From NCBI GenBank assembly GCA_964487375.1, contig CAZAQA010000008.1:61402-125401 (forward strand): 64,000 bases of DNA, read 5' to 3'. The stretch comes from an uncultured Anaerolineae bacterium. GTDB lineage: Bacteria > Chloroflexota > Anaerolineae > JAADDB01. A model generated the notes under the pieces. That model saw only the letters and a list, made by a program, of their open reading frames with translations, had not been told where the DNA came from and made no database searches. The position numbers were made by a program, and so were the translations under genes. Of the stretch, positions 23,353-32,863 are shown piece after piece (the first letter of the stretch is position 1; each line of letters begins with the position of its first letter).

Positions 23353-23911
23353 ACGTGATCTCCTCCTCTCGGTCGATAAGGACGTCGACCCGCATAAGTC
23401 CCTGCTCCACCTGGACGCGCGTGGGAAAATGGGCCCGACGAATGACCCGCAAAATGCGGTGATTGTCGGGCTGGACATATGCGTACAATACCCGAACACC
23501 CTGGTCACGAGCCAGAACCGCCATCTCCGCAAGCAGGCGTGTGCCGATCCCTTGACCCTGCCAATCGTCTCGCACTACCACCGCGGCCTCGGCCTCTGAC
23601 TGGCCGGGGGCATGCGCAAAGCGGGCGCTGCCCACGATGATCCCCGCGTGCAAAGCGACCAGGGCTGCCCCCCGCCCCGGAGGAATGCCCTCGAGCTCGC
23701 CGGTGCGCCGCAGCAGTTGTTCTGATGGGGGATCGGGAACAGGGATATGAAAACGCCGGTAACGAGTTTCGGGAGAAAGGCGGCCAATGAACTCCACCAT
23801 TCGCTCCTCGTCGTCCGGGGCCAGGGGACGAATGAGGATATCCAACCCCCGACGAGTGCGGAAGACTTTCGGCCACCCTTCCCCAATCGTGGAAGTCATG
23901 CGCCTTTCCAC
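23342..23911 (-). CDS. GNAT family N-acetyltransferase
   Basis: Acetyl-CoA binding region [17 protein letters not shown] (Q/RxxGxG/A) and GNAT-like length. Confidence 0.7.
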
Positions 23912-24675
23912 CGGGGTTCGCGCTTTTCCACGAATGCCCTCATGCCTTCTTTCTGGTCCTGAGTGCCAAAAAGGGCGTAGAACAGAAGCCGCTCATGCTG
24001 GAGCCCGGCATCCAAAGTGCTGTTGAGCGCGTACAGAACCGCTTCTTTGCCGTACTGAATGGCCAGGGGAGCCCGTGCAGCCAGTTTGGCCGCCAGGCTG
24101 ATGGCTTCGTCCAGATAACGATCCTGAGGGTAGACATGATTGACCAGCCCGAGCTGCCGAGCCTCCTCCGCGGTCAGGCGTCGATCGTTCAGGATCATCT
24201 CCATGGCCAGGTATTTCCCGATGGTACGCGTCAAACGCTGGCTGCCGCCTGCCCCTGGGATGATGCCCAGGTTGATCTCCGGCTGGCCGAAGACGGCGCT
24301 TTCGCTGGCAATAATCATGTCGCAGGCCCAGGCCAGCTCAGCGCCCCCGCCCAGGGCATACCCGGACACGGCCGCGATGACCGGTTTGCGGGCCAGGGCC
24401 ACCGCGTCCCACCCGCGAATGAAGGGAGCGCTCTTCATTTCGGCCGGTGTCTTGGCCATCATCTCCTTGATATCCGCGCCGGCAGCGAAGGCCTTATCAC
24501 TGCCCGTGAGCACCACCGCACGCACGTCCGGATCCGCGTCCAGCATCGCGAACGCCTGGGCCAGCTCTTGCAAAACGGCCAGGTTCAACGCGTTGTACTG
24601 CCTGGGGCGATTCAACCGTACCAGAGCCACTCCATCAGCAGGGTGTTCAATGAGCAGAAATTCGAATGGGGACAT
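23896..24675 (-). CDS. Enoyl-CoA hydratase/isomerase (crotonase family)
   Basis: VALVRLNRPRQYNALN...VVLTGSDKAFAAGADIKEM oxyanion-hole motif. Confidence 0.85.
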   Translation of the reverse strand: MSPFEFLLIEHPADGVALVRLNRPRQYNALNLAVLQELAQAFAMLDADPDVRAVVLTGSDKAFAAGADIKEMMAKTPAEMKSAPFIRGWDAVALARKPVIAAVSGYALGGGAELAWACDMIIASESAVFGQPEINLGIIPGAGGSQRLTRTIGKYLAMEMILNDRRLTAEEARQLGLVNHVYPQDRYLDEAISLAAKLAARAPLAIQYGKEAVLYALNSTLDAGLQHERLLFYALFGTQDQKEGMRAFVEKREPRWKGA

Positions 24676-24729
24676 ACGTCACCTCCTCGTGACAAGATTG
24701 GACCTCAGCCGAAATGGGTCTTGGTCGCT

Positions 24730-25494
24730 TCACACCATCACCTTGCCGCCATCCACATGGTAGGCCTGGCCGGTGATGTACGTCGCGCCGTCGGAGGCCA
24801 GGAAGAGGACGAGGGCAGCGACCTCCTCCGGCTCGCCCAGACGGCGCAGGGGGATCTCTCGCATCCACTTCTCCATCATGGCCGGGTCTTGGCGAGCAGC
24901 CGCGGTCATCGGCGTGACGATGACTCCCGGACAGATGGCGTTGACCCGAACGCCGTAGGCCGCGAACTCTCGCGCGGCCTCTTTGGTAAATCCGGCGATG
25001 GCCGCTTTGCTGGCCGCATAGGCACTCCGGTGGTAAAGCGGTGTGGCCTTGCCGGCAATGCTGCTCATGTTGATGATTACGCCCGATCCCTGCTCCTTCA
25101 TCACCCGCCCCGCGGCCTGGGTGCCGAGAAAAACCCCCCGAGCGTTGATCGCCATGACTCGATCCCAGACATCGACCGTCATATCGAGAATGGAGGCGTG
25201 AGGTTCAACGCCCGCGTTATTGACCATCACGTCCAACCGACCCCAGCGGGCCATCACGGCCTGCACCAACGCCACGACATCTTCCGGTCGAGACACATCT
25301 CCCTCGTGCACCAGGGCCTCTCCGCCCAGGGATTCGATCTGGGAACCCGTTTCCTCAGCTTTTGTCCGAACCACATCGTTGACGGCCACGCGCATACCCT
25401 GCCGGGCCGCGGCCAGGGCAATGGCCCGACCGATGCCCTGGCCGGCGCCGGTCACCGCCAGGACCTTCCCTTCCAATTCCGGATAAACAGGCAT
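24730..25494 (-). CDS. SDR family oxidoreductase (3-oxoacyl-ACP reductase-like)
   Basis: VTGAGQGIGRAIA (TGxxxGxG), NNAG, YxxxK (YAASKAA) motifs; start at the ATG 25494. Confidence 0.85.
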   Translation of the reverse strand: MPVYPELEGKVLAVTGAGQGIGRAIALAAARQGMRVAVNDVVRTKAEETGSQIESLGGEALVHEGDVSRPEDVVALVQAVMARWGRLDVMVNNAGVEPHASILDMTVDVWDRVMAINARGVFLGTQAAGRVMKEQGSGVIINMSSIAGKATPLYHRSAYAASKAAIAGFTKEAAREFAAYGVRVNAICPGVIVTPMTAAARQDPAMMEKWMREIPLRRLGEPEEVAALVLFLASDGATYITGQAYHVDGGKVMV

Positions 25495-25516
25495 GATTCT
25501 CTCCCTCCTTATAAAC

Positions 25517-26434
25517 TCAGCGAGAACGCCGCCGGCGGGGCGTGTAGGCCCGCGCGCCTCCCACCGCAAAAGGAGCTTCCGCCTGCATCTCGGAACGCAC
25601 GTATGGATGAGGGTGAGCCAGATAGCGCTCTGCCGCCTGGCGTCCCGCTTCGATCATCTCGTCAATGTGAGAAAAATCGTTGAACGGCAGGTCTTTGAAG
25701 GCAGTAATGTGGATATGGTGGAGCTCGATGTGGGGGTCGGCCTGGGCATGATCCAGATCGTCCAGCAATGACTGGACGGTGAACGTATCCAGGACGCGCT
25801 TGAGCACGTTGAGCACGCCGTGGACAGGTTTGCGTTTTTCGCCGCCATATCCCACGTTGACCACGTAAAGGGTCGTCGCCCCTTTGTCCATGGCCACACC
25901 GGCAGGCGCGGCAGCCACGACGCCGCCGTCCACCAGTTGCAGACCGTGATACGCCACCGGAGGATGAATGCCCGGGACAGACACACTGGCAAGCACGGCT
26001 TCCACTAAAGGCGCCTGGGGATCCTCGCCAAACAGGTACAACCGGCTGGTTTGCAAGTCTACAGCCGTCAAATAGCACGGCATTTTCAGATCCCCGAACG
26101 TCCGTACACCCACGGGCAGGTTGCGTCGGATGAGTTCGCGGATTCCGTAGCTGGGGAAGAAGCTGTCCGCGCCGATGAGAAGACGCCAGGCCAGGGTCAG
26201 GGCATTGCCCGGGTAAACGGTGGAACGGTCCGCTTGATGCCAGAGTGCAGCCAGCTCGTCCATATTGGCCTCGCGGCCGCGTGCGGCCACATACGTCGCG
26301 TTGACGGCCCCAGCAGACGTTCCCACGAGGAAATCCGGCCAGATGCCGGCCCGAAACAACGCATCCATGGCCCCGACCTGCAAGGGGCCCCGATTGCCTC
26401 CACCGCTAAGCACCAGTGCGATCATCGTCTTCAC
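25517..26434 (-). CDS. Patatin-like phospholipase
   Basis: LSGGGNRG (oxyanion), GTSAG (GxSxG serine), DGG (Asp dyad) motifs. Confidence 0.85.
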   Translation of the reverse strand: MKTMIALVLSGGGNRGPLQVGAMDALFRAGIWPDFLVGTSAGAVNATYVAARGREANMDELAALWHQADRSTVYPGNALTLAWRLLIGADSFFPSYGIRELIRRNLPVGVRTFGDLKMPCYLTAVDLQTSRLYLFGEDPQAPLVEAVLASVSVPGIHPPVAYHGLQLVDGGVVAAAPAGVAMDKGATTLYVVNVGYGGEKRKPVHGVLNVLKRVLDTFTVQSLLDDLDHAQADPHIELHHIHITAFKDLPFNDFSHIDEMIEAGRQAAERYLAHPHPYVRSEMQAEAPFAVGGARAYTPRRRRSR

Positions 26435-26757
26435 CTGTGTGGGCCGCGAATGGCCGCGGATGTTTCTGGTCTGTCCTCATGTCCCCCCAAGGGCTCGCCG
26501 ACCAATGTGGTCCCTCGAGCAATCCCCCTATTTTCCTATGGTCTTTTTGTTCATCCAGATGTATGATTAGGCCAGATGTGCCAGATGCAAAGAAATCGGC
26601 CCGCTCGACCCGGTGGGGACCGTCCTGTGCTCCCCATCATATCACACGGGCTGCCCGGGGTTCAAAATCCTTGCGCCCCGGCCAACGACTCAAAAAACTT
26701 GGCTCGACATTGGGCTGATGAAACACCAGAGGCATTATCATCAGAAGGACGGACTCT

Positions 26758-29487
26758 ATGACCATTCCGACGTTTATTTCCAGAATGCGCGTGTGGGTAG
26801 GTAGTTTCATCCTCCTGCTCTTGCTCCTGGCAGCCGGGGGAGGCCTCTATGGAGCGCCTCTGTCCGCACAACCAGGAGGGGCATGGCCACATGGGCCACA
26901 GCCCGGCCACAGCCCGATCAGGACCGTTCCTTTTGTCCCGGGCCGCGTTTTGGTGAAACTCCGCTCATCGCCGGAAGGTCTCCGTTTCTTGGCCCGCCAA
27001 CCGGGTGTGTTGGCCGCGGCGTCCCTCCCTGCCCTGCACCTGGAAGTCCTCACGGTGCCGGTAGGCCACGAGCAGGAGATGGCCGAGCGCCTGCAAAGGG
27101 ACTCACGAGTCCTCTACGCGGAGCCGGATTACATTTACCAGGCCCTATCGACTCGGCCCAACGATCCTTTCTACACCCAGTACCAGTGGCAACTTCCTCA
27201 CATCGGTCTGGAAACCGCCTGGGACACCACACAAGGCAAGGACAGCGTTATTGTCGCCATCGTCGATTCCGGCGTCGATTTGAGCCACCCGGACCTGGCG
27301 AGCCACGTGATCCAGGGGCGCAACGTCATCGCCGGCAACAACACCCCTGAGGATGATCAGGGACACGGAACGCACGTGGCCGGCATTGTCGGCGCCATGA
27401 CGAACAACCACCTCGGCATCGCGGGGATCGCCTGGCACGTGAAACTCATGCCCGTAAAGGTCCTGGACAGCAGCGGCAGCGGGACCTCCACCCAGGTGGC
27501 CACGGGAGTCCGCTGGGCCGTGGACCACGGGGCCCGGGTGATCAACTTGAGTTTGGGCGGAAAGTCATCGTCCGCCACACTGCGCGACGCTATCGACTAC
27601 GCGTACGCCCATGACGTCCTGGTGGTGGCCGCGGCGGGGAACGCCTACCAAGATGGCAATCCTCCCATCTACCCCGCGGCCTATCCTCATGTCCTCGCTG
27701 TCGCGGCCACGGATGACCAGGACCGGCATGCCAGCTATTCCAGCAGCGGGCCTTTTGTAGATGTCGCTGCTCCCGGGGGCGACCCCAGCAGCAATGCCGA
27801 CCAGAATGATAGACATTGGATCCTCAGCACATACTGGCGCGGATCCAATTACGCTTACGCCTTCCTCGCGGGCACAAGTCAGGCCGCTCCCCACGTCTCC
27901 GGTCTGGCTGCGCTCCTCCTCTCCCTGAACCCGCGCCTCTCCGTGGACGATCTGACTCAGATCATCACCGGCACCGCGGTGGATGTGGAGTCCCCCGGCC
28001 GGGACGATCTGACGGGCTATGGGCGTATTAACGTGGCCGCGGCCGTTGCTGCAGTCCTGAGCACGCCCACGCCGACCAAGACGGCCACGGCGTCGCCCAC
28101 CCCGACCCTCACACCTACCCCCACGGCGACGGAGACGCCCAGCCCAACGCCAACGTTGACACCGACGCCCACGGCCTCTGCAACGCCTACGTGGACGTCG
28201 ACGCCAACGTTCACGGCGTCGCCGACTCCTACGCTAACGCCCTCTCCGACCGTCGGGAGCACGGTGACTCCCACCGCAACGCCGACGCCAACGCCATCGT
28301 CGACCCCCGCCCTGTACCCCTTGCACGACACACGTGTCAATAATGATTCGGGCAATGCTGCCCAGCGCCATCCCCATGTGCTTGTGGACGAGACGGGCGC
28401 GGTGTGGGTCGTCTGGCGCGACAACCGGAGCACACCGGCGGGCATCTATGTCGGAGTGCTCCACCCACATCAGGCGGGCTGGACGTCTAACGAGAGGGTG
28501 TCCCCCGTGTACGACTCCGACCTGATGGCCGTACGCCCGGTTCTTACCCGCCAGGAGAGAGAGACAGCTATCGTGTGGCAGGATACCCGCGGCCAGGATG
28601 AGAACGTCTACGTCTCCCTCTCCCTGGCGAATCCTTCTGTCTGGACGGCGCTTCAGCAGGTCAATGACGATTCCACGCCGCCTGCACAACAGTTCTCTCC
28701 CGACGCGGTCATGGATGCTGCGGGACGGCTCTACGTGGTTTGGACGGACACGCGTCACGGGAACCGCGATCTGTATTGGCGCACGCGCACATCGGGACAG
28801 GGAGCGCACTGGCAGCCGGCCGCGCCGGTGCCGCCCGCCAGCGGACCGGGTGTGCAGATGCAACCGGCGCTTGCTGTAGACGCGGCCGGCAAGGTGTACC
28901 TGGCCTGGGCCAACGAAACACCGGGGCGCATCGAGGTGGCCGTCTTCGACCCGAACACCCGGGTCTGGCAGACGCTGCCCGGGGTCGGCGGTGGATTCAC
29001 CCCCGGGGCCCAGCCGATTCTGCCCGACATCGTCGTGGAGAAAGGCCGTATCCACGTCATCTGGCAAGAAGTGCGCCGGCCGGAACAAGGGTTCGACATC
29101 TACCACAGCGTCTTCGAGAACGGAGCCTGGACCCCGGCCCAACGGGTGAACACGGACATCGGTGGGGCCATCCAGAGCGCTCCCCGTATCGCCAGAGCAC
29201 CGGACGGGGTGGTCGCGGTGTGGGAGGATTGGCGCTTGGGGCGACCTGACATCTACATGAGCTGGTGGACGCCGGAGAAGGGCTGGCTGCCAGAACGCCG
29301 GGTCGCGGACGAGTCCGTTTTTGCCCTTCGCTCTGAGCCGGATGTCGCGACCGACGCCCAGGGCGGAACGCACATTGTTTGGGTCGATGCCCGGAGCCTC
29401 GCTTCTGGTCCAGACATCTACTACCGTTACATTCCGCTCAGCTACCGTTACGCCACGTATGTGCCCGTAATGTGGGTACAGAGGTGA
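26758..29487 (+). CDS. Secreted S8 subtilisin-like serine peptidase fused to a Thr/Pro-rich linker and a C-terminal 7-repeat beta-propeller-like domain
   Basis: Signal peptide; catalytic triad motifs VAIVDSGVD, HGTHVAG, GTSQAAPHVSG; ~85-aa TPTPT linker; seven ~50-aa repeats each with V(V/I)WxDxR...G.(D)IY. Confidence 0.85.
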   Translation: MTIPTFISRMRVWVGSFILLLLLLAAGGGLYGAPLSAQPGGAWPHGPQPGHSPIRTVPFVPGRVLVKLRSSPEGLRFLARQPGVLAAASLPALHLEVLTVPVGHEQEMAERLQRDSRVLYAEPDYIYQALSTRPNDPFYTQYQWQLPHIGLETAWDTTQGKDSVIVAIVDSGVDLSHPDLASHVIQGRNVIAGNNTPEDDQGHGTHVAGIVGAMTNNHLGIAGIAWHVKLMPVKVLDSSGSGTSTQVATGVRWAVDHGARVINLSLGGKSSSATLRDAIDYAYAHDVLVVAAAGNAYQDGNPPIYPAAYPHVLAVAATDDQDRHASYSSSGPFVDVAAPGGDPSSNADQNDRHWILSTYWRGSNYAYAFLAGTSQAAPHVSGLAALLLSLNPRLSVDDLTQIITGTAVDVESPGRDDLTGYGRINVAAAVAAVLSTPTPTKTATASPTPTLTPTPTATETPSPTPTLTPTPTASATPTWTSTPTFTASPTPTLTPSPTVGSTVTPTATPTPTPSSTPALYPLHDTRVNNDSGNAAQRHPHVLVDETGAVWVVWRDNRSTPAGIYVGVLHPHQAGWTSNERVSPVYDSDLMAVRPVLTRQERETAIVWQDTRGQDENVYVSLSLANPSVWTALQQVNDDSTPPAQQFSPDAVMDAAGRLYVVWTDTRHGNRDLYWRTRTSGQGAHWQPAAPVPPASGPGVQMQPALAVDAAGKVYLAWANETPGRIEVAVFDPNTRVWQTLPGVGGGFTPGAQPILPDIVVEKGRIHVIWQEVRRPEQGFDIYHSVFENGAWTPAQRVNTDIGGAIQSAPRIARAPDGVVAVWEDWRLGRPDIYMSWWTPEKGWLPERRVADESVFALRSEPDVATDAQGGTHIVWVDARSLASGPDIYYRYIPLSYRYATYVPVMWVQR

Positions 29488-29542: not shown

Positions 29543-30031
29543 TCACCAGCCGAACAATTTCAGCCGGATCCGTGTCCAGAGGGAAGATTCCTTTCCAGGA
29601 CGCTGCAAGGAGAAGGACCATCCTTCCTCTCCTGGACCCTCCCGAATGTAAGCACGGATTCGGGCAACCTCCTCCGCATGTCCTCTGATGAGATCCAACC
29701 GCGGACGGGGAAACCAGTACGGGCAGCCGACGCACCAGGAGAGATCTCGGGGCAGGCGTTCCGGGGGAGCCAGCCGGTAAAAGTAGCGACAGGCAAAGTA
29801 AGCTGGCGGGTGAGGCGGATCGTCGATGAAACGAATGGGGCGCAGATACAAGCAGGCGCGCGGGTGACGAAGAGCCTCTGGGATGGGGCAGGCCCCACAC
29901 ACGCGCTCCAGGGCGGATGTCTCCTCCCCAACCCGGGCCAGAAAGGTGTCCCCGGCCACTGTACACACGAACTCTTCTCCCTGACCGTCTTTTGCTGGTC
30001 GACGCTGGCGGAACTCACATTCCGGTATCAT
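29543..30031 (-). CDS. Small Cys-rich hypothetical protein (third gene of an uncharacterised operon)
   Basis: 162 aa from ATG 30031 (MIPECEFRQ...), which overlaps the stop of the upstream gene (ATGA); 8 Cys including CGAC and CVGC pairs. An alternative frame (29560-30018) is also open, so the call is tentative. Confidence 0.4.
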   Translation of the reverse strand: MIPECEFRQRRPAKDGQGEEFVCTVAGDTFLARVGEETSALERVCGACPIPEALRHPRACLYLRPIRFIDDPPHPPAYFACRYFYRLAPPERLPRDLSWCVGCPYWFPRPRLDLIRGHAEEVARIRAYIREGPGEEGWSFSLQRPGKESSLWTRIRLKLFGW

Positions 30032-30822
30032 GGCTCCTCTCGCCTTTCTCCCGCGTAGAACGCCACCGCACGCACCCAGGAACGGGCTTCCTCCGACAAG
30101 TGAGGTTCCTCTCGGTGTTGCCATCCATGCTTACGGATGTACTGACTCAGGTGATCTCGCTGATCCAGAATTCGTCGACGCGCGTCCTGGGCCAGGAGCA
30201 AGGCCACGTTCGCATCCCGCTCCTCGGCCAGGAGAAGCGCACGGCGTAAATGAGGCAGACAGAGGCCATCAGAACTCTCGTACAAGGAGCGGAAAGAGGC
30301 CTCGGGATATCGTTTGATCAGCCAGATGAGGTGCGTGGTCTCCTGCTCCTGCCCGATCGCACAGGCCCGGCAGACGCCACGCGGGGCCAATCCGAACGGG
30401 AGATCCCCGGCTCGGCTGCCGGCGAAGAGTCGGAGCCAGACGTTGCGCAGGCGCCACCACCAACGAGGGGCTTGCCGCGCCTTGTGGCGCTGCATCTCGA
30501 TATAGGCGTCGATCCCGTCCAGGGTGTGCCGGAGCAAGTCCTCGTACAGGATGCCCACGCCTAAACCGTCTTCCCAGATTTGGGCCTCCAACCGCTGCAC
30601 GTACCAGGCGTGGGTGGGGCAAAACCCCAGCGCGGGGACGATGTGTCGCCGCGTGGCTCCGTCGTTGACATGTTCTCGCAACAACGAGAGCAAATAGCGG
30701 TGTTCGGCCTGATAGCGTAACCGACAGAGGGGACAACCCGGTTCCCGGAAAGCTACCTTCAGATCCAATGTGATGAGATCGCCATGTCCTGGCATCATCT
30801 GCTTCCTAAACGGCCTGGGCAA
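30028..30822 (-). CDS. Hypothetical protein with CxxC...CxxH...CxxC...CxxH motifs (putative Zn/redox site)
   Basis: 264 aa; GCPLCR, GFCPTHAW, GVCRACAIG, GLCLPHL; 17-nt overlap with the upstream gene and ATGA overlap with the downstream gene. Confidence 0.5.
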   Translation of the reverse strand: MPRPFRKQMMPGHGDLITLDLKVAFREPGCPLCRLRYQAEHRYLLSLLREHVNDGATRRHIVPALGFCPTHAWYVQRLEAQIWEDGLGVGILYEDLLRHTLDGIDAYIEMQRHKARQAPRWWWRLRNVWLRLFAGSRAGDLPFGLAPRGVCRACAIGQEQETTHLIWLIKRYPEASFRSLYESSDGLCLPHLRRALLLAEERDANVALLLAQDARRRILDQRDHLSQYIRKHGWQHREEPHLSEEARSWVRAVAFYAGERREEP

Positions 30823-32263
30823 TCATGCATCGCCGCGTTCGCTCGGCCAGGCTATAAAAGGCACGAATGGCCCCATGGGGAAAGCTGAAGCGCACGCCCT
30901 TCCCGCGCGTGTGGGGAAGGCGTACTTCGAGATAGGCGTTGAGGATGGAGTCCTGGAACACCAGGGTTCCCACATCTTTCAAAGCCCATTTTCTCGGCGA
31001 GGAGACGGACGCGGCCTGAGGATCCGGGATCTGCCACAGGGTCGACGGGGTGACGAGGAGCAGATGGGCCACAGCGGAGGGATGGGCCCAGGCCGGGAGC
31101 AAGGCCCACGTCTGCACCGGCTCGGAGAGATGGTCCTCAAGCCACTGCGAAAACCGGTCCTGCAGCGCAGTCACCTGCGCCGGATCGTTCGTGGCCGGGT
31201 CGACCAAAGGGGGCAAGGGGTCGAGGGGAGGCGGCACGTGGGCGCGGCGCAGGATGTAGCCGTTGCCGGCCCCGGGGAGGAACGATCTTAAGTGGACAAG
31301 AAGCTCCTCCAGGGCGGCATGTTGGGCTGCAGGGAACTCCCACACCACTTCCTCATCCCCCCGGGCCGTCCGCCAACGAGTGCGCAGGAGGAGCACATCG
31401 CCACTCAGCTCGTCCACACGGACATCGTTCAATCGCTCCAGGACCCCCATGTGAGACGTAAAACCGTAACGCACCCCGGCGCTGTCGGGTGGGACGAGTT
31501 CGGTCAGGTGCAGCAAACGCTGGTCCGTAAGAATGAGCACGCCTTCGTAAATGATCGGCCGTCGCCAGAAGGTCCCTTGCAGATGGCTGCGCAAGCGGGG
31601 ACGCCAAAGTGCGATGAGGATGCGCTCGTCCGGGGCTAAATGAGAGGCCACGTACCCTTGGAAACGCCGCGGAAGCCGGAAGAAGGTGTATTCGGCCTCC
31701 GTGTAATGTTCCACCCGGGCAAAGGCCAGTCGGCCCCGGTAGGGTGCGGGAGGACGCCAGAGGGGAGACGCTTCGTCTGTTGCCCGGGCATTCAGGGCCA
31801 GGCGATAGGCGCGCTGCGCCTCTTGAATCTGCGGCCACACCTGATCTCGCTCCAGCCAGGCATGCACATCCACGGCCGCGAAGACCTGCAACCCGGCCAT
31901 CACCTGCTGCCGCTGTTCCGCATCCAGGTCGGGGATGTCGGACAAGGAGGCACAGGTGGGATCGGCATCGGCAACCGCCACAAGTACCGGAGGCCGACCT
32001 TCCATGCCGTTGTGGATCCCGCCGATGATGCGGGCGAACAGCCGAGTTCCCGGCGGATGAGAAGCGGTGCCCAGGAGGAGAACGGGCAAAGGGGTATTCT
32101 CGACCGTCAGGGTGCGCAGTACAATGGCGTGGTCGACCGAAACCCGCCGATCGGGCATATGAATTTCTTGCAGGTGAAGACGTTCGTCCTCGGGATCAGG
32201 ACGGTACACTCCAACCGGTCGTCCCGGGCGCACGATCTCTATCTGCACGATACCCCGACTCAT
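30806..32263 (-). CDS. Hypothetical protein with a degenerate family-I inorganic-pyrophosphatase-like N-terminal domain
   Basis: 485 aa from ATG 32263. Residues ~5-130 (IVQIEIV...ENTPLPVLLLGTASHPPGTRLFARIIGGIHNGMEGRPPVLVAVADADP) parallel the PPase core (VVIEIP...DGDPLDVLV...[29 protein letters not shown]), but most metal-binding Asp residues are replaced. The remainder is unassigned. Confidence 0.5.
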   Translation of the reverse strand: MSRGIVQIEIVRPGRPVGVYRPDPEDERLHLQEIHMPDRRVSVDHAIVLRTLTVENTPLPVLLLGTASHPPGTRLFARIIGGIHNGMEGRPPVLVAVADADPTCASLSDIPDLDAEQRQQVMAGLQVFAAVDVHAWLERDQVWPQIQEAQRAYRLALNARATDEASPLWRPPAPYRGRLAFARVEHYTEAEYTFFRLPRRFQGYVASHLAPDERILIALWRPRLRSHLQGTFWRRPIIYEGVLILTDQRLLHLTELVPPDSAGVRYGFTSHMGVLERLNDVRVDELSGDVLLLRTRWRTARGDEEVVWEFPAAQHAALEELLVHLRSFLPGAGNGYILRRAHVPPPLDPLPPLVDPATNDPAQVTALQDRFSQWLEDHLSEPVQTWALLPAWAHPSAVAHLLLVTPSTLWQIPDPQAASVSSPRKWALKDVGTLVFQDSILNAYLEVRLPHTRGKGVRFSFPHGAIRAFYSLAERTRRCMIAQAV

Positions 32264-32863
32264 GGAATCTTCCTCGCGAACGTTTCTGCCTTGAAGCGCG
32301 TGTCTGCCCCCAAATCCGGCAAACAAAAAGCCTCTACCGAGCCAGGTCGGTAGAGGCCATCAGTCCCCACGGACACTTCCGGCGAGCCTCATCGCCATCG
32401 CAGGGAGTATACCATCAATTTGCCCCACCGCGCAACCCCATCAAGCGCGCAGGCAACCAGCCCCACGTCGCCAGTAACAGGTCCTGTCCTGGCATGAGGG
32501 CCGCCTTGCGGTGGCTCTGGCAGAATCATGCCTCCCCCGGGAAGTGCCTGAGCGTGACCATCGAACGAGAATTCCCGGAACGCGACGAGGCCGCCTCCGT
32601 GTTCCCGGAAACGGCCTCGTGCTCCCCACGCACCCACTGCCTGTAGCTCTATTATATACTCGATCCTGTTGCTTTTTTCTGTAAGCTTCCTTACATTACA
32701 GACTTACTGAATCGGGTTTTGGTCCGAAACGTCGCCAGCAGATCCCGGGGCCCGCTCCGAAGATCGAACCTGTGGATCATGATGCGGGGGTTCGCCCAAA
32801 CGGCCGGAGCAAGGTATACTTGAGCAAGAATCACCATCCGAAATGTCACCGGAGGAGAGCGCC

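Follow-up and report, generated by a model that had tools for sequence, protein, structure and literature searches.

The gene at positions 26758..29487 of the window (the whole 64,000-nucleotide stretch of DNA analysed here) encodes a subtilase whose C-terminal half is a repeat region left blank by Pfam, which raises the question of what this half is and what it might do for a protease. The ORF given in the initial annotation was confirmed in its exact coordinates (stop codon included), (+) strand and length of 909 aa, and comprises a pre-pro-subtilase followed by a linker, a propeller and a tail; all features described below lie on the same (+) strand. The ATG at 26758 is preceded by a Shine-Dalgarno-like GAAGGA (26744..26749, 8-9 nt upstream) and is for this reason favoured over the later start of JGI protein P0023, which is 100% identical to the gene product and was called with 832 aa.

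The N-terminus (aa 1-33; 26758..26856) resembles a signal peptide, with basic residues R9 and R11 preceding a hydrophobic Leu/Ala/Gly run and a putative cleavage site. AlphaFold2 (AF2) predicted a helix at aa 4-30 and disorder at aa 30-56, and the hydrophobic N-terminus is comparable in all orthologues. A propeptide of the fervidolysin-N-pro/I9-like type follows (aa 56-131; 26923..27150), with β-α-β-β-α-β topology; the Pfam model PF22148 (Fervidolysin_NPro-like) matches aa 56-124 with 32.7 bits (cutoff 21), and the prodomain fold spans aa 59-129 in the AF2 secondary structure. AF2 confidence is low at the propeptide/protease junction (aa 132-144), where aa 134 aligns with residue 3 of mature thermitase. 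The catalytic domain (aa 132-435; 27151..28062) contains a Peptidase_S8 match (PF00082) at aa 162-422, spanning profile positions 2-288 of 288 (E 2e-62; 211.6 bits, cutoff 21.8), and its PDB matches include thermitase 1TEC (E 6e-58), Ak.1 protease 1DBI (E 3e-56) and fervidolysin 1R6V (E 2e-40). The triad residues occur in the expected order and with the oxyanion Asn, namely D170 (DSGVD; codon 27265-27267), H203 (HGTHV; 27364-27366), N295 (AAGN; 27640-27642) and S374 (GTSQAAP; 27877-27879), all four invariant across 23 orthologues. The secreted-type S8 subtilase with D/H/S motifs that had been read from the ORF is thus intact, and its sequence assigns the protein to the thermitase subgroup of Peptidase S8. 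Identity as a mycosin (TIGR03921) was rejected, with 242.2 bits against an equivalog cutoff of 278.75, and no ESX genes were found in the neighbourhood of the gene; the JGI label "mycosin" on some relatives is an over-annotation.

Between the protease and the repeats lies a Thr/Pro-rich linker (aa 436-521; 28063..28320) that is predicted to be disordered, with an AF2 pLDDT of about 35 over aa 438-518. Thr accounts for 35 and Pro for 23 of the 90 residues at aa 436-525, bearing out the spacer of about 85 aa first proposed, and a comparable T/P/S-rich stretch is present in 45 of the 52 orthologue clusters. Its origin by recent tandem expansion was rejected, the DNA holding no real tandem repeat, and a weak 18-nt periodicity (64% matches) was seen. 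The full-length AF2 model (pTM 0.49) shows independent domains joined by this disordered segment.

The repeat region (aa 522-892; 28321..29433) consists of seven units at 28330-28488, 28492-28650, 28654-28818, 28825-28974, 28981-29136, 29140-29292 and 29296-29430, whose cores lie at aa 552, 606, 661, 716, 768, 821 and 874 with a period of 52-55 aa. When an HMM built from six units was scored against the seventh, the left-out units reached 15.8-44.6 bits, whereas none of 200 shuffles per unit exceeded 11 bits, placing the seven repeats first counted by eye far beyond chance. The repeat motifs then described stood in part: the V-W-x-D/E-x-R core is present in six of seven units, unit 4 being degenerate (AWANET) here as in the orthologues, and the turn reads exactly "DIY" in units 5-7, being replaced by DLY in unit 3, NVY in unit 2 and GIY in unit 1, and lost from unit 4. 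The strand-1 motifs PDIVV, PDVAT, PDAVM and PALAV correspond to "PDIAV", so that the subtype can be described as "PDIAV / VWxDxR / DIY" throughout 28321..29433. AF2 modelled the region with good confidence (pLDDT 81.4, pTM 0.81) as seven units of three long strands and one short strand each, also within the full-length model, in keeping with the seven-bladed propeller that had been suggested, here predicted with four-stranded blades. Each blade but one also carries a second, invariant Trp (W575, W629, W685, W737, W791 and W843), which the initial annotation had overlooked.

Rather than an unnamed fold, these repeats represent a divergent lineage within the BNR/Asp-box (sialidase-clan) propellers. 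The gene product itself had no Pfam match to BNR_2, BNR_4 or BNR at E ≤ 1, and neither Pfam nor NCBIfam returned a PPC, Fn3 or P-domain, the standard modules already discounted, or a Tachylectin/PLL lectin, PD40, Kelch or WD40 match. Its relatives are informative: P0147, P0149 and P0151 (E 4e-74 to 6e-68 to the module) score 114.6, 109 and 86.9 bits with BNR_2 (PF13088; cutoff 31.4 bits), P0004, P0005, P0018 and P0022 score 44-65 bits, and relatives also match BNR_4 (PF15892) and BNR (PF02012). In a BLASTP alignment the propeller matched P0149 blade for blade (E 1e-38), with canonical SxDxGxTW boxes lying opposite the retained Trp (L-H-P-H-Q-A-G-W against S-T-D-G-G-A-T-W). A phmmer search with the module found relatives in 10,922 cluster representatives, with E-values as low as 1e-98. 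The Asp-box, xx(S/t)x(D/n)xGx(T/s)(W/f/y), sits in the loop that connects strand 3 to strand 4, and its D/n at position 5 and aromatic residue at position 10 are obligatory (PMC2716378). The canonical form S.[DN].G.[TS][WFY] was matched nowhere in the module or in all 52 S8-fused clusters; the D/N at position 5 is absent everywhere and the position-10 Trp alone survives, in six of seven blades, the second Trp of each blade being this Asp-box remnant.

Structural comparison agrees with this placement. In Foldseek, sialidases and the seven-bladed BNR_4 enzymes of GH145/PL42 matched best (E 1e-9 to 1e-7, TM 0.50-0.55), and all top matches belong to the sialidase superfamily with probability 1.00; since TM ranges over 0.43-0.55 and identity over 8-13% across the matches, the relationship is one of superfamily and not a close one. 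Searched against the PDB as a single sequence, the module had chance matches only (E ≥ 0.047), and a profile of orthologue modules detected GH145 proteins 5mvh and 4irt (E about 2e-3) as the sole solved structures. BLASTP, phmmer, the GH145 profile matches and the fold together establish that the module shares an ancestor with genuine Asp-box propellers. The comparison with BNR/sialidase, PD40 and Tachylectin families suggested at the outset therefore ends essentially in a BNR/Asp-box match at superfamily level, through relatives and fold, which is the kind of outcome that the initial annotation had itself named as a refutation, with Pfam BNR membership reached only transitively through homologues; the idea of a module outside named families holds insofar as its own sequence passes no Pfam propeller model and fails at the superfamily level. 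A huge propeller subtype thus escapes the Pfam BNR thresholds once its Asp-boxes have decayed.

The architecture of S8 domain, linker and propeller recurs in 52 protein clusters, mostly from Chloroflexota, where it is common yet unlabelled in domain databases, and a fusion of S8 with a propeller of the BNR type was not described in the literature searched. A related-locus search with a 4-sequence alignment returned only 9 loci, and three lineages had three unrelated gene contexts. Here the upstream neighbours encode a patatin, an SDR and an enoyl-CoA hydratase, and a convergent fluoride-riboswitch operon lies downstream; as the neighbours are housekeeping genes and the contexts of the three lineages are unrelated, we rejected any functional inference from operon structure. 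The sortase, S-layer or glycosylation context that had been proposed as a check was not borne out, no such genes (glycosyltransferase genes included) being nearby or conserved in the three contexts, and the orthologues instead carry a putative "YLP-box".

This box concerns the C-terminal tail (aa 893-909; 29434..29484; SYRYATYVPVMWVQR), which is a degenerate copy of it by comparison with orthologues. Orthologue C-termini follow (E)R[FY]xx[YF]LP[LIM][VIL]x[KR], with the YLP 7-9 residues from the C-terminus and then a basic residue, and such tails were present in 41 of the 52 orthologue clusters. Of 286 proteins, 53 carried the motif at the C-terminus where 0.33 would be expected, an enrichment of about 160-fold, and the S8-only relatives P0092 and P0102 have the linker followed directly by the YLP-box. 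The tail of orthologue P0048 scored 15.9 bits with NF050076 (cutoff 15) and 14.4 bits with NF053834 (cutoff 10), and that of P0092 reached 10.6 bits with the YLP-box models. The tail of the gene product, YVPVMWVQR, had no match to either model at E ≤ 10, so surface sorting may have been lost in this lineage, even as the tails of most orthologues point to cell-surface display of the family. AF2 confidence is low over aa 900-909. Docking of the tail in the S8 active site, or its service as a confident closing strand, was unsupported (pLDDT below 50). The literature search retrieved no relevant paper on the YLP-box.

Turning to function, we consider the propeller most likely to be a non-catalytic binding or scaffold module, because its conserved positions all belong to the repeat motif and its loops 2-3 are short throughout. 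Among the 23 orthologues every module position that is invariant or at least 90% conserved lies within the motif (N, Q, P, G, W, D, R, D, W); the conserved Arg and Asp are solely those of W-x-D-x-R, and no blade-specific His, Tyr or Glu reaches that level. Loop 2-3 measures 10-13 residues from Trp to Tyr in all seven blades, and the catalytic and ligand residues of known Asp-box enzymes all lie on their variable loops 2-3 (PMC2716378). The same propeller type occurs elsewhere joined to PKD, FlgD_ig/T9SS tails, Big_13, CARDB, He_PIG or lipoprotein signals, and sister S8 enzymes carry Kelch, CAP + CarboxypepD_reg or DUF11 modules in its place. A substrate- or surface-binding role, as first put forward, accordingly appears plausible from the company this propeller type keeps, beside PKD, Big_13, CARDB and lipoprotein signals.

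A rival reading, in which the propeller captures peptides or proteins as substrates in the manner of sortilin Vps10 or gates the S8 site as in prolyl oligopeptidase and tricorn, would suit a protease, for which a substrate-capture module is useful; Asp-box propellers do include the non-enzymatic, peptide-binding Vps10/sortilin domain, and relative P0005 has a faint Sortilin-Vps10 match. We nevertheless think it improbable, since gating propellers pack directly onto the catalytic domain, whereas the 85-residue linker with its predicted disorder and the full-length pTM of 0.49 would fit flexibly linked domains; moreover, 144 of the 150 best relatives have this propeller type without any protease, and the propeller of sortilin has ten blades around a wide tunnel, against seven blades here. 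The strong conservation of D, R, N and Q in each blade could also mean seven equivalent ligand sites and not pure structure. Multi-site lectin propellers are typically regular in sequence from blade to blade, and a multivalent lectin similar to tachylectin, PLL and CV39L-type propellers, with the polar residues of each blade (RVNDD...Q, W-x-D-x-R, DIY) forming up to seven equivalent sugar sites, would bind a repetitive polysaccharide avidly. The polar motif is retained in six of seven blades and across orthologues, and Foldseek places the CV39L lectin among its top matches (E 5e-9); the TM to CV39L is only 0.44, however, with an rmsd of about 14 Å, a motif conserved over more than 10,000 clusters and many phyla fits a blade-stabilising role better than a single ligand, and the Asp-box is documented as structural and not ligand binding, so that we hold this reading to be equally doubtful.

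Lower still we place a bifunctional enzyme in which the propeller, as a sialidase-like hydrolase or a GH145/PL42-like rhamnosidase or lyase, would strip glycans from glycoproteins whose protein core the S8 domain cleaves. Sialidases rely on an Arg triad, a Tyr/Glu pair and an Asp, and GH145/PL42 enzymes on His residues and a neutralising Arg; judged by conservation among the 23 orthologues, the module appears to have neither set (GH33 or GH145/PL42), no His, Tyr, Glu or Arg being conserved beyond the repeat motif. That the best structural matches are without exception glycosidases or lyases, that the profile-level PDB matches are GH145 proteins only, that some relatives have weak matches to NCBIfam AlphRhmnaseBT3686 and that PL42/GH145 enzymes are themselves seven-bladed BNR_4 propellers would speak for such an activity. 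Identity to these enzymes is, however, only 8-13% with TM at most 0.55, and the short, uniform loop 2-3 contrasts with the variable loops 2-3 from which Asp-box enzymes build their sites; giant surface proteins carry tens of copies of the same blade type, unlike enzymes, and many GH145 members are themselves inactive. Finally, one could argue from the absence of any matching Pfam model that the repeats owe their similarity to chance or low complexity and that the C-terminal half does not fold as a domain; this can be virtually discounted, since left-out units scored 16-45 bits and shuffled ones never more than 11, AF2 gave a confident model, 10,922 cluster representatives are homologous to the module, and two Trp in each blade are invariant among orthologues.

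We therefore favour, with reasonable though not high confidence, a stand-alone exported pre-pro-subtilase tethered by a disordered stalk to a non-catalytic binding or scaffold propeller, with a decayed YLP-box at its end. The N-terminal segment would carry the protein across the membrane; the fervidolysin/I9-type propeptide, by homology, would assist folding as a chaperone, inhibit the enzyme for a time and be removed near residue 131/132, as in thermitase-type enzymes. The active thermitase-like domain would then remain joined to the propeller through the Thr/Pro stalk of about 85 residues, which may allow the catalytic head to sweep its surroundings, with the propeller probably anchoring it to some surface or polymer, which may be insoluble substrate material or belong to the cell itself, as envelope or sheath. 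The last ~15 residues would be the remains of the putative sorting tag that most orthologues and many other Chloroflexota surface proteins carry. Should the propeller prove to be an anchor that binds polymers, it would go some way towards explaining how proteases are kept near the cell or on particulate substrates, a matter that concerns the filamentous Chloroflexota of sludge, sediments and mats.

A broader proposal, which we regard as speculative and rather unlikely, is that the "PDIAV / VWxDxR / DIY" propellers form a distinct and very large family (>10,000 clusters), Asp-box-derived and Asp-box-less, whose polar ring provides equivalent polymer-binding sites and which, with the Thr/Pro stalk and the YLP-box, constitutes an uncharacterised display system of Chloroflexota. 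If so, proteases and giant adhesin-like proteins would be positioned on the filament surface or sheath, and the ligand of the polar ring would be a repetitive envelope or matrix polymer. The protein-level biology would not surprise a specialist; modular secreted subtilases with exchanged C-terminal binding modules are commonplace. The gain lies in annotation, as a Chloroflexota exoprotease family today labelled merely "S8 family peptidase" can be described more fully as a thermitase-like protease with a disordered T/P stalk, a divergent BNR-superfamily seven-bladed propeller and a YLP-box tail.

Among known proteases, fervidolysin shares the propeptide type and a pre-pro layout with C-terminal accessory domains; these are β-sandwiches and differ from the propeller, whereas thermitase lacks the C-terminal module that the gene product bears on its long disordered stalk. 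The YLP-box, a putative sorting motif (NF050076 "sort_motif_YLP"; NF053834 "ultrashort_CTERM") passed by orthologue tails, is not followed by a transmembrane helix, unlike LPXTG, PEP-CTERM and PGF-CTERM. NCBIfam NF053835 ("PDIAV motif-containing lipoprotein") and the TIGR04275 repeat ("beta_prop_Msarc") represent the same blade subtype; relatives P0146, P0149, P0151, P0159 and P0163 (E 1e-60 to 1e-77) pass NF053835 with 106-172 bits, whereas the gene product, a protease-bearing non-lipoprotein with no lipobox Cys at its N-terminus, scores 38.1 bits against a cutoff of 90. Sub-threshold NCBIfam hints on the gene product later turned out to indicate the correct subtype. The literature search found no relevant paper on the PDIAV family, whose name has no function attached.

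GH145 (BT3686, BACCELL_00856 5mvh and BACOVA_03493 4irt) and PL42 FoRham1 have seven blades, as here, and matched in Foldseek at E 1e-7, TM 0.50-0.53 and 10-13% identity; these are stand-alone enzymes with conserved catalytic His/Arg and no protease fusion, whereas the present propeller is joined to a protease and shows no such conserved residues among the orthologues. With the Asp-box/BNR propellers at large (Quistgaard & Thirup 2009, PMC2716378) it shares four-stranded blades and the Trp at the start of strand 4, and its blade count matches that of the established seven-bladed members GH74, GH145 and PL42. In typical Asp-box propellers almost nothing is conserved beyond the Asp-box itself, whereas the blades described here are unusually regular and strongly conserve the pattern "PDIAV ... 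VWxDxR ... DIY".

The open reading frame at 26758-29487 of the forward strand, listed with 909 codons as the initial annotation had it, carries a Shine-Dalgarno-like GAAGGA 8 nt upstream of its ATG and has a GC3 of 0.76, typical for real genes of the window. An identical protein of only 832 aa (P0023) is encoded on the JGI metagenome contig Ga0117756_1000149, where the gene call (L001 6001-8499) begins at Leu78 of the window protein (affected stretch 26758-26991), so that the signal peptide and half of the propeptide are missing. The ATG at 26758 is favoured by the alignment of orthologues as well as by the Shine-Dalgarno-like motif, and the later start of P0023 is probably wrong. The N-terminus of the window protein, with basic residues followed by a Leu/Ala/Gly-rich run modelled as a helix (residues 4-30), resembles a Sec signal or signal-anchor, and such an N-terminus is present in all orthologues.

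According to Pfam, aa 56-124 form an N-terminal propeptide of the fervidolysin type, and aa 162-422 match Peptidase_S8 over its full length (E 2e-62). The closest solved structures to this protease half were thermitase (1TEC, E 6e-58) and Ak.1 protease, with fervidolysin matching at E 2e-40. Since residue 134 is the alignment partner of mature thermitase residue 3, the propeptide should be cut near residue 131/132; the junction at aa 132-144 was of low confidence in the full-length AlphaFold2 model. D170, H203, N295 and S374 were invariant in 23 full-length orthologues, for which reason the S8 enzyme is expected to be active. Some relatives are named mycosin in JGI, a label to be ignored because the window protein did not reach the TIGR03921 equivalog cutoff (242 vs 279 bits) and no ESX genes surround the S8 gene.

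The segment following the protease (aa 436-525) contains 35 Thr and 23 Pro in 90 residues, and its core (aa 438-518) was modelled with a pLDDT of about 35. Downstream of Peptidase_S8, where Pfam gave no match, seven repeat cores lie at aa 552, 606, 661, 716, 768, 821 and 874, spaced by 52-55 aa. The seven repeats noted previously are real, as each unit scored 15.8-44.6 bits against an HMM of the other six in leave-one-out comparisons, while composition-preserving shuffles (200 per unit) never exceeded 11 bits. The V-W-x-D/E-x-R core occurs in six of the seven units; units 5-7 keep a literal DIY turn, which is degenerate in units 1-3. Unit 4 (aa 690-739; 28825-28974, forward strand) has lost both, with AWANET ... 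RIEV in place of the motifs, and this degeneracy is conserved in the orthologues (consensus 'YxxWxxxxxGxxxIxxA'). The adjoining 'LPGVGGGF' (aa 740-747), one of a small number of blade-specific stretches conserved in the closest orthologues, is thus a candidate for functional asymmetry. AlphaFold2 modelling of aa 522-909 with 17 distant homologues gave an all-beta fold (pLDDT 81.4, pTM 0.81) with seven sets of strands, each of three long and one short, which bears out the proposed seven-bladed propeller. The same strand pattern recurred in the full-length model built from the 23 orthologues, whose overall pTM of 0.49 fits two independent domains, protease and propeller, that would be flexibly tethered.

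The initial annotation had placed this module perhaps outside named families, which was not borne out: four independent lines agree on the BNR/Asp-box (sialidase-clan) superfamily, of which the module is a divergent member. As a single sequence it retrieved no match from the PDB, and the window protein remained below every curated propeller threshold (PDIAV_lipo, 38 vs 90 bits; none reached in Pfam). An exhaustive search of 1.84 billion cluster representatives returned 10,922 relatives of the module at E <= 1e-3, 3,761 at <= 1e-10 and 268 at <= 1e-30. Module homologues carry textbook Asp-boxes between blades, e.g. 'SSDGGRSWSTPMRVNDD...PNLALD..NNIYIAWTDMRNGNNDVYF', and four of them exceeded the Pfam BNR_2 gathering score of 31.4 bits (P0004, 44.4; P0005, 65.1; P0018, 51.5; P0022, 59.0 bits). 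The close, non-orthologous relatives P0147, P0149 and P0151 (E 4e-74 to 6e-68 to the module) matched BNR_2 at 87-115 bits, plus BNR_4 and BNR, and NF053835 ('PDIAV motif-containing lipoprotein', cutoff 90) was passed by P0146, P0149, P0151, P0159 and P0163 with 106-172 bits. BLASTP aligned the module with P0149 blade for blade (E 1e-38), the 'STDGGATW' of the latter sitting opposite 'LHPHQAGW', 'ANPSVW' and 'FENGAW' of the window protein. Foldseek against the PDB retrieved, with probability 1.00 and TM 0.50-0.55, sialidases (pseudaminidase 2W38, E 1e-9; Neu2; P. gingivalis and C. perfringens sialidases) and GH145/PL42 enzymes, and a profile of the orthologue modules matched GH145 structures only (5MVH, E 1.5e-3; 4IRT, E 2.3e-3). 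BT3686 (GH145) and FoRham1 (PL42) are propellers with seven blades, the latter belonging to Pfam BNR_4 and having an SxDxGxTW motif (PMC8377490); as Asp-box propellers with 5, 6, 7 and 10 blades have been listed (PMC2716378), seven-bladed BNR propellers are an established class.

In known Asp-box enzymes, catalytic and ligand-binding residues reside in variable 2-3 loops on the top face (PMC2716378), whereas this loop is short and uniform in the window module, the stretch from Trp to Tyr measuring 10-13 residues in each of the seven blades. Every module column that was invariant or at least 90% conserved in the 23 orthologues falls within the repeated motif (N528; Q536, Q700, Q806 and Q858; P648, P756 and P809; G547, G656 and G869; 13 Trp; the D and R of W-x-D-x-R and the D of DIY), and the same alignment contained no blade-specific conserved His, Tyr or Glu. 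Proteins of 2,000-4,300 aa contain dozens of copies of this blade type. It also occurs together with PKD, FlgD_ig/T9SS tails, Big_13, He_PIG and lipoprotein signals. Sister proteins keep the thermitase-like S8 and fervidolysin-type propeptide core with differing C-terminal modules (P0074-P0098, P0101, P0103, P0109, P0113 and P0124-P0131), namely CAP/PR-1 with CarboxypepD_reg, Kelch propellers, DUF11 and dockerin-like domains; in sister enzymes of the same clade the propeller is exchanged for Kelch, CAP with CarboxypepD_reg, or DUF11. Such variation on one S8 core indicates that modules are actively shuffled among Chloroflexota exoproteases. Conservation, short loops, giant multi-copy proteins, domain partners and module swaps together point to a binding or scaffold module outside the cytoplasm that has no catalytic role and can be exchanged between secreted proteases. 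This supports the earlier reading of the seven-bladed propeller as probably a binding module. The propeller might, less probably, have a multivalent lectin-like role.

A permuted order was seen in the relative P0125 (1279 aa, JGI), in which CARDB is followed by a BNR propeller with canonical Asp-boxes, 'VVYLPLIAKSG', the S8 catalytic domain and, at the extreme C-terminus, a propeptide-like domain; this could be a genuine circular permutation, an internal YLP-box beside the protease N-terminus, or an artefact of gene calling or assembly.

The S8-linker-propeller layout (800-960 aa) was found in 52 of the 114 listed S8 homologue clusters, 45 of them with a T/P/S-rich linker. Those with a taxonomic name belong to Chloroflexota, Caldilineaceae, Anaerolineae or Anaerolineales, and their annotation goes no further than 'S8 family peptidase'; the fusion is common in Chloroflexota though unannotated. 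The closest match in GTDB genomes was an Anaerolineae MAG at 41% identity, and the blade type occurs also in Eisenbacteria, Beta- and Gammaproteobacteria. The S8 gene neighbourhoods of three lineages were unrelated to one another, and no sortase, S-layer or glycosylation context was found in these or in the window. Here the gene is flanked by a divergent patatin/SDR/enoyl-CoA hydratase cluster on one side and a convergent operon on the other. The latter comprises a fluoride riboswitch (RF01734; 32344-32405, minus strand; 34.4 bits vs a gathering score of 34, E 9e-6) and, directly downstream on the same strand, genes for a 506-aa protein (30806-32326) matching inorganic pyrophosphatase PF00719 at its N-terminus only (24.2 bits), a DUF6062 protein (30028-30822) and a 193-aa protein without Pfam match (29543-30124), possibly forming a fluoride-responsive operon of largely uncharacterised function that converges on the S8 gene. 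On the other side, a 562-aa ORF (23995-25683, forward strand) almost certainly represents a spurious, high-GC shadow ORF, because the minus-strand enoyl-CoA hydratase (23896-24675) and SDR (24730-25569) genes to which it is antisense match Pfam strongly.

The orthologues end in a tail with the consensus (E)R[FY]xx[YF]LP[LIM][VIL]x[KR], which passes the NCBIfam cutoffs for the 'YLP-box putative sorting motif' (NF050076 and NF053834). The tag, of the form YLPL[IV]x[KR], also terminates many secreted or giant proteins that are otherwise unrelated, among them S8-only proteins directly after the T/P linker (P0092, P0102), S8-Kelch proteins (P0103, P0124), the BNR-only P0005 and giant proteins of 3,500-3,700 aa (P0252, P0270, P0276). 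Among 286 fetched proteins, 53 had [YF][LI]P[LIVMA][LIVMAT] in the last 13 residues against 0.33 expected (about 160-fold C-terminal enrichment), the motif usually starting 7-9 residues before the C-terminus without a following TM helix. The tag suggests that members of the family are displayed on the surface, where the T/P stretch would serve as a stalk; our literature search found no paper on the YLP-box. The tail of the window protein (29434-29484, forward strand), YVPVMWVQR, fails both cutoffs, the tag having drifted in this lineage and its closest relatives P0024 and P0026.

The window protein thus belongs to known kinds, a modular secreted subtilase and a BNR-superfamily propeller, and its main interest lies not in the fusion but in a very large propeller subtype that lacks Asp-boxes, together with the ultrashort YLP-box tag. 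The Asp-box, xx(S/t)x(D/n)xGx(T/s)(W/f/y), occupies the loop between strands 3 and 4, and in known structures the D/n at position 5 and the aromatic at position 10 are never substituted (PMC2716378). No match to it occurred in the window module or in any of the 52 S8-fused clusters; the remaining 144 top relatives had about 0.32 canonical Asp-boxes per blade core. With the motif absent and homology present, we classify the module as an Asp-box-decayed 'PDIAV/VWxDxR/DIY' subtype, homologous to Asp-box propellers yet failing their motif-level definition. Compared with these propellers it keeps only the position-10 Trp, which together with the strand-2 Trp makes two invariant Trp per blade in the orthologues. 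Ordinary Asp-box propellers show very little conservation beyond the Asp-box, whereas the window blades are unusually regular, following the additional pattern 'RVNxDxxxxxQxxPxIAxDxxGxxxVVWxDxRxGxxDIYxxxxxxxxxxW'.
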